Below, piece after piece: positions 12,235 to 17,970 of a DNA stretch of 64,000 bases. The stretch's first letter is position 1; every line of letters starts with the position of its first letter. Under the pieces are notes generated by a model. That model was not told the DNA's origin. It did not search any database and saw nothing but the letters and a program-made list of their open reading frames with translations. Source of the DNA: a virus; the IMG/VR virus record IMGVR_UViG_3300033562_000245, positions 1 to 64,000 of that record; one strand, 5' to 3'. The translations under genes were made by a program, and so were the position numbers.

Positions 12235-12381
12235 GTCTACCGTGCGTAATAGGTAGATGCTTTGGTAACATGAGTTACCCTATCGGAACATCCTTCCTTG
12301 GTTCTAAATCAAAGCGCAAACAACTCATGTTACCCAGGGAGGAGGGTTAACCCTCCTCCCTACCTTAACATTTTTATTTTT
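12235..12381 (+). promoter_or_regulatory. structured intergenic element ending in GC hairpin plus T-tract
   Basis: TCTACC/GGTAGA stem; 13-bp GGTAACATGAGTT/AACTCATGTTACC pairing; 24-nt palindrome 12337-12360; T-rich tail. Confidence 0.55.
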
Positions 12382-12411
12382 AATTACCCAATTTTACATG
12401 GAGAATCGTTC

Positions 12412-15375
12412 ATGATACTAATGAAAAATTTCCTATTTAACTATAGTGTTAGACGGCAGCAGGATCTAGTCCATACTCTACAGTTAGATAATTTAACAGG
12501 AATGCCAAACAACGTAGTTGTTCATTGTTTGGATTCTATTAATTCTATAGTTCCGGCATACACTCCAAAGAATAACCCATTATTATTGTTAGGTAATAAT
12601 ATTAAATATATACAGCATATAAGTTCATACACAGAACAGAATACCGACGTAGTTCGGCTACCTGACAAAGGTGTTAGATTGCCGTCGGTGTCGATGGCTA
12701 GGTATATTTCAGAATTCAATCATGAATTTGGAAAACAAATAAAAAACCTGGCTCAAGGAGCCCGGACACCAAATTTATCTAACAGTGTTTTATATCTTTC
12801 TTATAACCCGATGTTCAGAGCTGTTTGTAATGGGCTACTAAAGAATGTTAGAAAATTTAATTATGTAATGAGTGGTGTTGTCAATCGTATTTCTTCTATG
12901 CCGACTAATCATCATCTTATATATTTTCCTATGCCTAGTGATATGGCTATTCACTTTAAGATGAACGATTTTGTTAATGCGTTTAAACAATTAAATAACA
13001 GTACGATTAGATATCCTAATTTTGAACACTATTTAATGTTTCTGAATCTATTAGCTTTTGTGAATCACGATAGTAATATTTCTATTTTAGATCATCTTCC
13101 TAAGTCTATGTTAGACAAAATAAACATCATGTTTGTTAATAATGATAACTTTGTTCTTTATAACTTAGAACAGCTTAAGAGGCTAAATGGTGATAGTTCT
13201 ATAGAAGAAGAAAAAGATGAACACGGTAACACCTCCGGTAATAGAATTCTGTATAAGTTGGTTACACAATTTAATATTATTAGCTCTGAGCGTAACATAG
13301 ATCAAGATAAAATTATTCATTCTAGCGTTATAGATATCCCTGATGAAAACGATCCTACAGTAATGAATATCCCTTCTGTTCTTGGAACTATAAGTAATAA
13401 GATTTCAGATAATTATAAAGAACAGCACGGAGAGCTTACTAGAGGTATCGTTAATAACATCGATAATAAAGCTAAAGAATTCATATCTAATAACGACGAT
13501 CTTACCGAACGTCAAAAAACTAAAGCTTTGTCTAACGCTCTTAAATATAAAGAACTTACGATTGGGAATAAATCATTTGATGATGTTTTAACTAAATCTA
13601 ATGATAATAGTTTACGTGGGGTATATTTAAAGCATCTTGATAATAAAGTATCAGATAAGTCTATGCTAGAATCGAGTATAATTCACTTTGATGATAGTTA
13701 TATGAAAAATACTTTCCATCAAGAGTTAGCAGGTATCTTATCTTCTTTTAATGGACTGGGTATGTTTCTTACAGACTTTAAAGAAGAAGATATTTCTGAC
13801 GAATTAAATCAATTAATGCATTATACTGCAAAGTATACCGATTCTACAGGTAAGGCTCATGCTCAAATAGTTTTTACTTTACCTAAAGTAAATGAAGAAG
13901 GTAATTGCTTTATTAATGGTGTTAATAGGTTTATGAAGAAACAAAGAGTTAACATGCCTATATGTAAAGTAAGTCCTAATAGGATAACATTGACCTCTTC
14001 TTATAACAAAAGTTTAATGGAACGTGTTGCTATTAGGAATGATTTTTATACTTATTTTACTTCGATGCTAGTTCACGGCAGTGCTAAAGTAATTCTAGGC
14101 AAAGCTGAGGTAGAAGGGTTAAAACTTCCATACGAATATAGTTTATTGTGTAAAAAGATTATATCTTTTAAATTAAACAATAACTTTTTGATCTTTGATT
14201 ACCCAAACAGATTCAAAGATTTAAAAGATGAAAGAGCAAAAAAGATCACTCAATTGGAGGCTAAGTACGGGGTCTATAGTGGTTATATTGACAACTCAAA
14301 TACAGTCTTTTTTATGACCTATAAGGGTGCGCTCATCGAGTACAATTTACTCAATTCTGAGGTAGAAGTTAAAACAACCTTAATTAGTAAAATCGCTCAT
14401 ATGACAAATACTAACAAAAGATTGAATGAATATGTCTATCTAAAACTAGTAGATAAAAATCTACCTGTAGGTTTTGTTTTAAGTTATAAATACGGTTTCA
14501 ATGAAATGCTTAAATATCTAAATGTCGATTATTCTGTGTACGCTAAAAGAGAAAAGTTTAGTGTCGAAGTAGACGATATAGAATTAGAATTTAAGGATTG
14601 TACCGTAGTTATTAAAAGAGTTCCTTTGGTTAATAGTTTTATAATGTCAGGATTAACTCTTTATGAAACAAGTAGATATAAACTAGAAGAAATGGACGAT
14701 CCAGGTGTCTATTACGATATGTTATCTTTTAAGAATATCTCTACTAATTATCTTAAAGGTATAGACAGTTTCTTTGATTTATTTGTTGGTTATATAGAAC
14801 GTAAACTTCTGATTCAAATGGGTATGCCTACGGATGTTAGAGACCTTATTATTAAAGGTGTCTCAATGTTAACAACAACGGATCACAAAGAAGCATCTAG
14901 TTCTCTAAACTTTAAAATAAGAAGTTACGAAAAATTCAACCACATAATTTATAACGAATTGGCCCGAGCTTATGCTACATGGAAGAATAAAGCTGTAGGT
15001 CACAGCTCTTCTTTTACTGTCCATCCTTTTGTTATAAATCAAAGAATAGTTGAAGACGCTTCGTTCGATAAGTTAGATGTTATTAATCCTATCCATGCTA
15101 TTAAAATGAAAACATCTTACTCTCACTTAGGTGAAGGTGGTAGAACAGCTAGTACGTTTATGATAGCCGATAGAAAATTTACTAAAGATAGCTTAGGTAT
15201 TATATCAGAAGCTACGGTAGATAACTCATCGGTTGCTATTAACGGCCTACTATCTATGAATCCTAGTATAGTTAATACTAGCGGTATAACTATGTCTAAA
15301 GAAGCTAAAGATGTAACAGCAACAGAACTACTTAGTATTACTTCATTGTTATTTCCTGCTGTGACACAAGATGAT
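12412..15375 (+). CDS. rpoB: virion RNA polymerase beta-like subunit, exon 1 (phiKZ gp178-like)
   Basis: FINGVNRFMKKQR, MPICKVSPNRITLTSSYNK, YSHLGEGGRT, GIISEATVD; ends at the RpoB-like TQDD; start moved to 12412 (SD GGAG). Confidence 0.9.
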
Positions 15376-15411
15376 GAAAATAGTTGATTTTGAATTAAGA
15401 TAAAATTCACC

Positions 15412-15441
15412 CTTCTATTATAGATAATTTTATAATAGGAG
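15412..15441 (+). promoter_or_regulatory. hairpin sequestering the RBS of the HNH gene
   Basis: CTTCTATTATA pairs with TATAATAGGAG, which contains the SD AGGAG. Confidence 0.65.
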
Positions 15442-15446
15442 ATTTT

Positions 15447-16442
15447 ATGTTTGAAAAAATTTGTATTGAAAACGATACTTGCGATTATTATGATATCCCT
15501 GATTTTAGTAGATACGCAATATCCGTAGACGGTGTTGTTATTGATAAAATAACTTCTATGGTTATACCTGTGTACACAAATCCAGACGGTTATTGTTTGT
15601 ATAGTTTAAAAAACGATAACGGAAAGGTGTGTTGGAGAAGTCAACACAGGTTAATATGTATTGTATTTAAAAATTCAGGTATTGATTATCCAAAATTACA
15701 AGTTAATCATATCAACGGTATTAAGAACGACAATCAACCAGAAAATTTAGAGTGGGTAACTCCAAAAGAAAATTGTGAACACGCAGGAATGATGGGTCTG
15801 ACAGAAAAATGTCTTCCGATTTCAATGCGAAATGCCGATACTGGGGAGGTAATAAAATTTCCTAGTATTGTAGAATGCGCCAGATATTTAGGTGTGTCGA
15901 AAGACGCTATAAATTATCGTGTTCATATAGGAGAGACTCGAGTATTTCCTGAAAGAAACCAATATAGATTTGGTCATTCTGACCATCCTTGGTTTATCCC
16001 TGATAACATCGACATTAGTTTGATGAGTAACGGCACTACTAAAAAAATTCTTATGAGATATGTATCAAACAATACAGTCTTAGAATTTAATAAATTGACT
16101 GATTTAGCAACCCATTTAAATGTTTCACCGTCTCTTATAACGAGATGGATAAATTTACCTAATCAGCCTTTATTGCCGGGATGGATTCAATTAAAAATGG
16201 CGAATGATCTATCTCCATGGAGATTAATCGGGGATGTCTATTTGGAATTAAGTGATTTTAATAGATTGTCAAGACCGGTACAAGTTATAAACAAACAAAC
16301 AGGTGAAAAGAAAATGTACTTATCCGCATTAGAATGCTCCAAAGATATGGGATTGAAACCTACAGCTTTAAATTATAGATTAAAATCTAAAGGTCAAACC
16401 GTATTTTCTGATGGATTTTCTTACGGATATTACCCGTATTAA
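15447..16442 (+). CDS. intron-encoded HNH homing endonuclease (NUMOD4-like + HNH + DNA-binding repeats)
   Basis: YYDIPDFSRYAISVDG; QHRL...VNHINGIKNDNQPENLEWVTPKEN; C-terminal repeated helix-turn-helix-like modules. Confidence 0.92.
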   Translation: MFEKICIENDTCDYYDIPDFSRYAISVDGVVIDKITSMVIPVYTNPDGYCLYSLKNDNGKVCWRSQHRLICIVFKNSGIDYPKLQVNHINGIKNDNQPENLEWVTPKENCEHAGMMGLTEKCLPISMRNADTGEVIKFPSIVECARYLGVSKDAINYRVHIGETRVFPERNQYRFGHSDHPWFIPDNIDISLMSNGTTKKILMRYVSNNTVLEFNKLTDLATHLNVSPSLITRWINLPNQPLLPGWIQLKMANDLSPWRLIGDVYLELSDFNRLSRPVQVINKQTGEKKMYLSALECSKDMGLKPTALNYRLKSKGQTVFSDGFSYGYYPY

Positions 16443-16451
16443 TTCGAAATA

Positions 16452-16827
16452 AATTATGCCGTCCTACCCACCGGTAACGGTCGGATAGAATTCCCTTGAA
16501 TTGCTAGAACCCCCTAAGAGCCTAACGACTACAATAGATCAGTAACGAATCTATGACAGTGATGAAAATCAGAAAAAACAGTTAGGATGATATATGCCGA
16601 GAGGCTACGTATTGTTTGCAATGGGCAACTGAGCAGCGAAGCTTCCTATTAGGAAGAACGTTCAACGATCAATCGTTTATCACGATGTACTCTCAAGTGA
16701 GAGGAAGCGGGGGAATCCTTTTTTATAAAGGATAAGACATGATCTGGCCTTCTAGTGAAAACTAGAGCAGTGTATTACAGTCGGTAATACGCGGGATTCG
16801 ATTAACGACCGAATTCGAACATTCGCA
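16452..16827 (+). ncRNA. group I ribozyme core
   Basis: P2 ACCG-GTAA-CGGT; TTGAATTGCTAGAA (P); GGCAACTGAGCAGCGAAG (Q); GTTCAACGATCA (R); AAGACATGATCTGG (S); P7 GATCA/TGATC; P7.1, P7.2, P8 and P9 hairpins. Confidence 0.88.
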
Positions 16828-17970
16828 GGAAAAAGAACCAACTTTACGTCAATACAGAGTTCACAGTTTGTTCCTGTAGAGGGTGCTGCCCCAATGAGGG
16901 TAAGAACAGGGTATGAATCTATTATTAGTCATTTATGCGGTAAACCGTTCGCTTCGGTTGCTAAAGAAAATGGTAAAGTAATAGAAATAAACGAAGAAGT
17001 TAAAATGGTTAAGATCGAATATAAAGACGGAAGTACAGAAGTAATGAGTTACGCTAAAGAATATAGTAATAACTCAGGTGCTGGTTTCTATGTCCCTCAG
17101 AATCTAAACTTAAATGACTTCAAAGTAGGTGACAAAGTATTTAAAGGCGATGTTGTTGTTTATAATAAGGACTACTTTCACGCTAATAAGTATGACAAAC
17201 AAGTTGATCTTAAATTAGGAGTTCCTTCGGTAGTTGCTTTTATAGAATCTGACGGTAACCACCAAGACTCCTCAGTTATAGGTCGAGAGTTAGCTAGAAA
17301 GTTACGTATGCCTGTGGCTCAACAGGTCACTGTTAACATATCAAGTAAAACAAATATATACAGTTGTGTTTCTATCGGAGATAAAGTCGAATCTACAGAT
17401 GTACTTTTAACCTTCGATGAAAATCCTTTGACAGACGAAGAAGAAGAAAAATACGATGATAGTTTAATAGATGTTCTAAATGCGGTCAATAGGGTAAAAC
17501 CTAAAGCTCATTATACAGGAACTATAGTTGATATATCAGCGTATTATAAATGCTCTTTATCGAACATGAATAAAACAGTTGCTTCTAAAATTAAAGAATG
17601 GTCTAAACTTAAAAATAAGAGATCGAAGTATGGTGAGAACTCCGTGTTATATCCGGAATCTAAATCTCTTGTTAATGATAAAGTTGGTGCTACTATAATG
17701 ACAGAAGAAACAGTTATAATTAGATTTACTATAGAACAAGTATACGATGCCGGCGACGGCGATAAACTATTTGTTGCTTCTCAAAGTAAATCTGTCGTTA
17801 GCGATGTTATGGATAAACCTATGAGAACGGTAGACGGACAAAATATAGATTTAATCCATTCTGCTAAGGGTATAGCCGACCGTATCGTTAACTCACCTTT
17901 CTGTACAGGTGTTGGAAATGTTGTAATGGAGAAACTCGAACAGGATATTATCGATATCTGGAATTCGTAG
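16828..17970 (+). CDS. rpoB: virion RNA polymerase beta-like subunit, exon 2
   Basis: Frame open upstream of ATG 16894: GKRTNFTSIQSSQFVP...MRVRTGYE; DGNHQDS, GDGDKL, SKSVVSDV; spliced product about 1368 aa. Confidence 0.9.
   Translation, partial: GKRTNFTSIQSSQFVPVEGAAPMRVRTGYESIISHLCGKPFASVAKENGKVIEINEEVKMVKIEYKDGSTEVMSYAKEYSNNSGAGFYVPQNLNLNDFKVGDKVFKGDVVVYNKDYFHANKYDKQVDLKLGVPSVVAFIESDGNHQDSSVIGRELARKLRMPVAQQVTVNISSKTNIYSCVSIGDKVESTDVLLTFDENPLTDEEEEKYDDSLIDVLNAVNRVKPKAHYTGTIVDISAYYKCSLSNMNKTVASKIKEWSKLKNKRSKYGENSVLYPESKSLVNDKVGATIMTEETVIIRFTIEQVYDAGDGDKLFVASQSKSVVSDVMDKPMRTVDGQNIDLIHSAKGIADRIVNSPFCTGVGNVVMEKLEQDIIDIWNS

Follow-up and report, generated by a model that had tools for sequence, protein, structure and literature searches.

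An apparent terminal A in a group I intron that interrupts a giant-phage gene for virion RNA polymerase

How might a group I intron be removed from a protein-coding gene when the reading frame that its exons must regain does not leave room for both of the bases at which splicing is expected to occur, namely a U as last base of exon 1 (position -1) and a G as last base of the intron (omega-G)? The question is raised by positions 15376-16827 of IMG/VR record IMGVR_UViG_3300033562_000245, where the second catalytic Asp codon of a virion RNA polymerase (vRNAP) beta gene is directly followed by what by sequence is a 1452-nucleotide (nt) mobile, IA2-type group I intron. The DNA analyzed, here the window, consists of 64,000 nt, i.e., the first 64 kb of a 118-kb contig, which is a fragment of an uncultured giant phage judged to be 46% complete; its features are on the + strand. 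An earlier, sequence-only reading of the window had claimed that the two canonical bases are irreconcilable at this locus, and had given as its first choice an intron ending instead with an A (omega-A). The answer favored here is that splicing probably does use U15375 along with A16827, likely with reduced efficiency. The locus thus would be a further example of a rare but documented exception, occurring in a known type of intron and at a known insertion site.

The exon join that the protein requires

Exon 1 (12298..15375, with frame open from 12298) ends as ...PAVTQDD, which is ...CAA GAT GAT to 15375, and reading through in frame from there gives GAA AAT AGT TGA, that is, ENS and then a stop. 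By tblastn, 310 records of phiKZ-like phages have a vRNAP beta that matches the last 458 residues of exon 1 (25-28% identity, E to 6e-52), and these include Noxifer, Moabite-like phages, RAY, and other chimalliviruses. Exon 2 (16828..17970), which is intact and runs for 380 amino acids from GKRTNFTSIQ... to its stop, opens as GGA AAA AGA ACC AAC TTT (GKRTNF) from 16828, with ...CATTCGCA as the bases directly before. It matches C-terminal vRNAP beta parts in 280 phage records (tblastn) and is 54-61% identical to metagenomic proteins P0004-P0007. Exon identity with cultured phages is only 25-32%. As judged from homology, the host is a phiKZ-like (chimallivirus-type) giant phage and the gene is that of its virion RNA polymerase beta, as had been claimed. 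Megablast against phages and exon-1 peptides against IMG/VR returned no close relatives, and an alignment-based IMG/VR search for them gave one distant locus only.

What must the mature message look like? Six intron-less alleles (L010, L011, L012, L013, L015, and L016) encode DD-G-KR or DD-P-KR, a single codon separating DD from KR in each of them, and all intron-bearing relatives show this same one-codon DD-x-KR spacing once their introns have been removed. The window mRNA therefore must read GAUGAU, then GGA, then AAAAGA. The protein, that is, requires exactly GAUGAU+GGAAAAAGA, as comparison with these alleles shows, and this is the same join of GATGAT to an exon 2 starting at G16828 which earlier had been put forward as needed to restore QDD-G-KRTNF. 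Separate translation of exon 2 from an ATG at 16894 was considered and rejected, as it would lose the conserved GKRTNF...P segment.

Canonical ends cannot supply this join. A scripted listing combined every U in 15340-15399 with every G in 16700-16859, retaining those pairs that leave an open frame, and 0 of the resulting 93 in-frame combinations gives DD-x-KR. The nearest canonical pairs are U15385 with G16825, which yields DDENSSGKR, i.e., four extra residues, and U15375 with G16800, which adds nine residues and employs a G found within the P9.2 loop. The first of these was ruled out, as DD and KR are a single residue apart in every homologue and the intron's guide is unable to pair there. 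Either the last intron base therefore is A16827 or, instead, both splice sites are located one base further on, following G15376 and G16828, respectively, which would give the same mRNA. The irreconcilability of U(-1) with omega-G is thus upheld, as are the other sequence statements of the earlier reading apart from its local P1 helix (see below).

The ribozyme and its 5' splice site

Two P1 helices had been drawn for this intron, one long-range and one local, and it is the former that relatives support. Here the P1 5' strand, GAU/G (15373..15376, the slash indicating cleavage after U15375), is paired with an internal guide, CCGUC (16459..16463), that lies directly 5' of P2: G16461-C16463 with the GAU of exon 1, this including a wobble of U15375 with G16461, and C16460 with G15376. 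A GUCC guide is found directly 5' of P2 also in the ORF-less (open reading frame-less) relatives L001, L007, and L017, and the same is seen at 16461-16464 of the window. As the window guide is more than 1 kb from the 5' splice site, an HNH endonuclease gene therefore is located within the P1 loop. In each of the nine relatives with a known 5' junction, the GAU of the exon is paired with a GUC in the guide, and the pair between intron position +1 and guide position -1 covaries, being G-C in the window, C-G in L001 and L014, A-U in L005 and L007, U-A in L008 and L017, and U.G in L009 and L021. The conservation of GAU/GUC, in combination with covariation of the next pair, therefore identifies U15375.G16461 as the wobble and G15376-C16460 as the first intron pair. 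Comparative evidence, that is, shows the predicted 5' splice site to be U15375, with the guide following the HNH ORF as the real P1 partner.

Two other candidates did not survive. The local P1 hairpin (15367-15392) folds no better than shuffled sequence (-2.5 kcal/mol, z = -0.46) and lacks a counterpart in relatives, so this portion of the sequence-only reading falls. U15372, as part of a GAUG repeat, pairs equally well with the guide as a 5' site, but frame is never then restored without loss of an Asp.

These same pairings bear on the possibility that both sites are found one base 3', with cleavage after G15376 (as G-C with C16460) and G16828 as terminal base, thereby keeping omega-G but breaking the U(-1) rule. 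It is a U.G wobble pair which specifies the cleavage site in group I introns, and we know of no natural G at -1, both of which count against this shift. No relative, moreover, departs from the wobble U15375.G16461, and it is G15376-C16460 that stands at the covarying position of +1 with guide -1. What the shift does offer is a G16828 that could occupy an unchanged guanosine-binding site, a product which is identical as G15376 and G16828 are the same letter, a P9.0 of C16826/A16827 with G16746/U16745, and precedent of a sort in the non-U (C) that is found at -1 in natural tRNA-gene group I introns (bioRxiv 10.1101/2020.01.27.920355). Overall we view the shifted sites as very doubtful.

Is the ribozyme itself in working order? 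When a 1.6-kb slice is searched alone, Rfam model RF00028 is matched over model positions 1-253 by 16403-16767 (57.9 bits, E 1e-13, versus a gathering score of 50). This full-length match bears out the claim of a group I intron in the vRNAP beta gene. Rfam scans of the whole 64-kb window missed the intron, in gathering mode and E-value mode alike, probably owing to the 1-kb ORF and long insertions defeating speed filters. Further introns in this genome may escape Rfam likewise, and the whole-window blanks therefore are uninformative as to whether more are present. When the 118-kb genome was scanned with P7 consensus words as motifs, a second convincing group I core did not turn up.

Core and periphery extend over 16467..16816, and consist, from RF00028 and RNAalifold, of P2 (16467-16484), P3 (16492-16497/16709-16714), P4-P6 (16503-16662), P7 (16665-16671/16740-16745), P8 (16715-16733), P9 (16752-16765), P9.1 (16770-16792), and P9.2 (16794-16816). 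Between P7 and P3' are hairpins P7.1 (16673-16685) and P7.2 (16690-16703), which are supported by compensatory changes among relatives (RNAalifold) and are typical of phage IA2 introns. The guanosine-binding pair of P7, G16667-C16744, is standard, as had been noted previously, with C16666 bulged. A consensus fold of seven homologues possesses 73 pairs, 55 of which display compensatory changes (RNAalifold). The window keeps 68 of these 73, versus 66-73 for five closer, G-ending relatives and 56 and 62 for L005 and L007, respectively, which carry large insertions. The predicted ribozyme family is in this manner shown to be under structural selection, with the core of the window copy intact.

The last base of the intron

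The intron's 3' tail, GAACAUUCGCA (16817..16827), has A16827 as its inferred last base, the homologous column being G in about 23 related introns. Frame puts the start of exon 2 at 16828, base 16827 is an A, and keeping a G instead costs U(-1). A terminal G nevertheless is a near-universal property of group I introns rather than a definition, since published self-splicing members lack it. Following P9.2, the tail is 12 nt in the window (CGAACAUUCGCA) and 10-13 nt in relatives, e.g., CGAACAUAACUG in L043 and UGAAGAUUUUCG in L019. As the window's tail otherwise is like those of its relatives (CGAACAUAACUG in L043 versus CGAACAUUCGCA), A16827 therefore would most simply have arisen by G-to-A transition at the last tail position.

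Pairings are available on both sides of this base. As P10, G16828/G16829 can pair with C16460/C16459, which accords with the exon-2 GG pairing proposed earlier, and the first P10 pair is present in six of the seven introns first compared and in 9 of 12 in a fuller table. As P9.0, the predicted minimum-energy structure of the 3' region includes G16825-C16748 and C16826-G16747. A16827 thus has two G-C pairs to either side, those of P9.0 before it and those of P10 after it. P9.0 was set aside as a discriminator, since two-base pairings may be drawn for G16825, A16827, and G16828, though only the A16827 version has two G-C pairs. 

With omega-A replacing omega-G, the exons would be ligated after A16827, and the mRNA junction would read GAUGAU/GGAAAAAG (the GAUGAUGGAAAAAG junction). 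The 3' site probably would be positioned by P9.0 (16825/16826 with 16748/16747) and by P10 (16828/16829 with 16460/16459), and since P7 keeps its G-C guanosine-binding pair unchanged, this step probably would have a lower efficiency than it has in relatives with omega-G. A more elaborate proposal is that this IA2 family ligates exons with a terminal A despite an unchanged P7 pair, with the 3' site set mainly by G-C P9.0 and P10, and that a slow or leaky step, in competition with the out-of-frame G16825 and G16828, limits the late supply of beta subunit. Taken as a whole, this we consider to be quite unlikely. Omega-A looks here to be a rare and probably somewhat costly variant rather than a designed control, as approximately 23 sister introns keep G. 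Protein-assisted splicing, or a regulatory choice of 3' site, is pure speculation.

One distant relative, L014, presents what seems to be a second case. It has 31% identity in exon 2, an RF00028 match of 63 bits, and a different P9 region. Its junctions are ...AAAGAUGAU/CAAC... and ...GGGUCAUGCUGA/CCAAAGCGAACAAAUUUU, giving a splice pattern of GAUGAU/C...GCUGA/CCAAAGCGA, which is in frame only with A as last intron base. There is an in-frame UGA stop just upstream, and therefore only a junction following the A can give DD-P-KRTNF. The sole canonical alternative (AAG/CGA) would remove two residues of the invariant motif. The L014 guide, GGGUCC, provides the same P1 as in the window along with a CC/GG P10. 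By sequence, then, L014 also seems to end in A. The one-base shift is impossible in L014, so omega-A covers both cases and the shift only one; along with the conserved wobble, this favors the pairing of U15375 with A16827 over the shifted alternative, as the sequence-only reading had ranked them.

L014 may also be compared with L023. Their exon 2 proteins are 98% identical, yet their introns (L014:2860-3015 versus L023:260-400) are wholly different once P7 has been passed, as far as the 3' splice site, and their first five exon-2 codons differ as well (PKRTNF versus PKRSLF). The difference looks like recombination or a co-conversion tract from another intron allele.

Might the message be corrected following canonical splicing? 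U15375 with G16828 or G16825 would be out of frame, but with recoding on GAAAAAG, via -1 slippage or one added A, DDEKRTNF could result. Thus U15375 with G16828 gives GAUGAU/GAAAAAGAACC, and DD-E-KR, which has the right spacing, would result if one more A were added or if tRNA-Lys slipped by -1 on A-AAA. A canonical X XXY YYZ heptamer is lacking, however, five As in a row are far too few for efficient transcriptional slippage, and no stimulatory structure was seen, though none was searched for. L014, moreover, would need the opposite (+1) correction, leaving no common mechanism. Such recoding is entirely speculative and, in our estimation, barely credible.

A greater concern is that this allele could be splicing-defective or impaired, i.e., that a recent omega G-to-A change (or undetected read-level error) results in mostly unspliced or frameshifted mRNA, and so in a low-fitness or non-viable variant. 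Consistent with this, strict G in about 23 sisters indicates selection, with A a singleton; P7 shows nothing that would compensate for it, L001 having the same P7 and ending in G; and the neighboring G16825 and G16828 would both give out-of-frame products, which end 15-17 codons later, a frameshift from G16825 having been predicted already. As for the sequence itself, an independent Logan assembly of the one public run containing the locus, a microbial-mat run, is identical over 15250-16950, without variants, at a k-mer depth of about 13. That assembly, which is of the same sample, rules out an assembler artefact, and at neither junction did it show the indel or substitution which the sequence-only reading had named as what could overturn it; in two other runs of the same study locus DNA was not found. 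With A as consensus at this depth in two assemblies, with exon 2, HNH ORF, and ribozyme all intact, and with the 118-kb fragment lacking a second gene copy, impairment loses ground. Were the allele of this essential virion enzyme lethal, it would not be expected to prevail in nature. Error, moreover, is a poor explanation for a second, independent A where L014 has it, at the same intron position, and published omega-A introns do splice. An impaired allele is accordingly judged to be unlikely.

As regards that gene copy, the search for a second vRNAP beta gene was made within the 118-kb fragment. Outside of the window, at C1:90293-90514 (- strand), the region immediately preceding the DD motif has a weak match in this genome (30% over 84 amino acids, E 0.2), which may be the non-virion RNA polymerase beta paralogue.

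A number of observations weigh against splicing after A16827, even as that remains the reading favored here. G is the terminal base of some 23 related introns that occupy this site. These are L001, L002, L005, L007, L008, and L009; that of phage 201phi2-1; vB_ParM-25, L020, L021, and L022; L023/L024 and L025; and ten further IMG/VR alleles, these latter obtained by a pattern search in which P9.2 loop, tail GAA, and K-R-x-N-F were fixed and the terminal base was left free. By this comparison, G clearly is selected in the intron family, and the window's A is a singleton rather than a property of a conserved clade. L023, the 98% identical relative of L014, also has a terminal G; both A cases hence appear to be singletons, with A appearing occasionally. 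The P7 guanosine-binding pair is unchanged, and the closest relative, L001, has an identical P7 sequence and ends in G. An unchanged pair should, reportedly from work with Tetrahymena by Michel in 1989 and by Been and Perrotta in 1991, disfavor A in the second step. In addition, with G15376 and G16828 being the same letter, mRNA alone cannot separate omega-A from the one-base shift. Lastly, the second assembly comes from the same sample, so that a population-level or library artefact is less well controlled, and no RNA run is listed among those containing the locus.

Should A truly be used, then an essential phage enzyme relies on a ribozyme step that textbook Tetrahymena work says needs G, and a phage case joins two published exceptions. 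The locus would offer as well an easy in vitro system for asking what replaces omega-G recognition, as the intron is 1.45 kb, or about 0.45 kb without its ORF, and G-ending sisters could serve as controls. If A instead is unused, then a mobile intron of known type is simply present here as a damaged allele. An intron mapper that insists on U...G would mis-annotate this gene, which is called as two ORFs both here and in hundreds of metagenomic relatives.

The endonuclease gene and known systems

The gene that is looped out of P1 (15447..16442) encodes 331 amino acids and is, by prediction, that of an HNH homing endonuclease. Pfam identifies HNH_3 (2.5e-8, 33.8 bits, cut-off 24.8) and NUMOD1 (30.1 bits, cut-off 22.8), with matches also to an I-HmuI NUMOD-like and an I-TevI DNA-binding domain. 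The ORF is full-length and is 35-52% identical to the intron ORFs of L005, L008, L009, and L019. Upstream, also in the P1 loop, folding predicts a 13-bp hairpin (15412..15441) enclosing the AGGAG that precedes the HNH start codon, the segment containing it, 15362-15446, having -15.5 kcal/mol and z = -2.8. This hairpin could limit translation of the endonuclease.

Endonuclease genes at this site vary in their arrangement. In L014 and L025 the HNH gene (L014:1375-2553 and L025:856-2076, - strand) is opposite in orientation to host gene and ribozyme, though the insertion site is the same; the pair share 52% identity, whereas the window ORF shares 35% with the gene of L014 and 29% with that of L025. 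In L003 (4654-6010), and also L004, an intron with canonical U and G ends is found 9 nt further downstream (DDGKR/ANF). There, about 41 nt separate the stop of a NUMOD/HNH ORF from exon 2, and two weak RF00028 matches flank or overlap that ORF, the ribozyme core probably overlapping the endonuclease coding sequence.

How common are introns at this location? In metagenomes they are very frequent: when exon 2 is the query, many proteins are recovered that start near KRxNF and are about 350-390 amino acids long, and their contigs display exon 1, then an intron, in some cases with an HNH gene and in others lacking one, and then exon 2. The exon-2 part alone is matched, with E below 1e-40, by 225 distinct metagenomic proteins of about 300-400 amino acids (P0023-P0142 in the list). 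This suggests that, among uncultured chimallivirus-like phages, a very large share have an intron at the DD/xKR site of vRNAP beta.

Of known systems, that of phage phiPA3 is among the closest. Its vRNAP beta gene (gp211/gp210/gp209) is interrupted, following the two conserved catalytic Asp, by an intron with the HNH gene gp210 (Birkholz et al. 2024, Science; PMC11620839), and the window intron both is found at the same DD/xKR site and encodes an HNH endonuclease. An intron with an HNH gene at this exact site, that is, already is published for phiPA3. In 201phi2-1 the intron at the same site (L017) is ORF-less, and the annotated joined coding sequence, gp273/274, has been seen by mass spectrometry. 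It shares with the window the guide GUCC, a P9.2 loop of AUUAACGAC, and a UGAA tail, but ends as ...AUAUCACG, i.e., with a canonical G, whereas the window intron ends as ...CAUUCGCA. The T4 td and nrdB and the SPO1-type IA2 introns have in common with the window P7.1 and P7.2, an essential phage gene, and a looped-out endonuclease ORF. Those introns, however, use U(-1) and omega-G, and have their ORFs within P6, P8, or P9 loops rather than within P1.

As to the terminal base, the sequence-only reading had omega-A as known from hexacoral mitochondrial ND5 introns but not from phages. The latter holds for the literature searched, in which no phage case was found, but a bacterial case has been published. 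This is the Coxiella burnetii 23S rRNA intron Cbu.L1917, which the title of Raghavan et al. 2007 (J Bacteriol 189:6572, cited in PMC5423948) describes as self-splicing and as one that 'lacks the canonical omegaG'; it differs from the window intron in residing within an rRNA rather than a protein gene and in not involving a phage. In the hexacoral intron, ND5-717, the last base is A rather than the 'universally conserved' G, and exons are perfectly ligated in vivo (PMC6545197, PMC8146996). The likeness to the window is in an essential host gene and would be in omega-A, the window's terminal A being placed by frame and by homologous 5' sites, and a one-base shift giving the same mRNA. ND5-717 differs in being mitochondrial, of another subgroup, strictly vertical in its transmission, host to genes in P8, and partly back-spliced. 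Its omega-A, furthermore, is conserved across a clade, whereas the window's A is a singleton among G-ending sisters.

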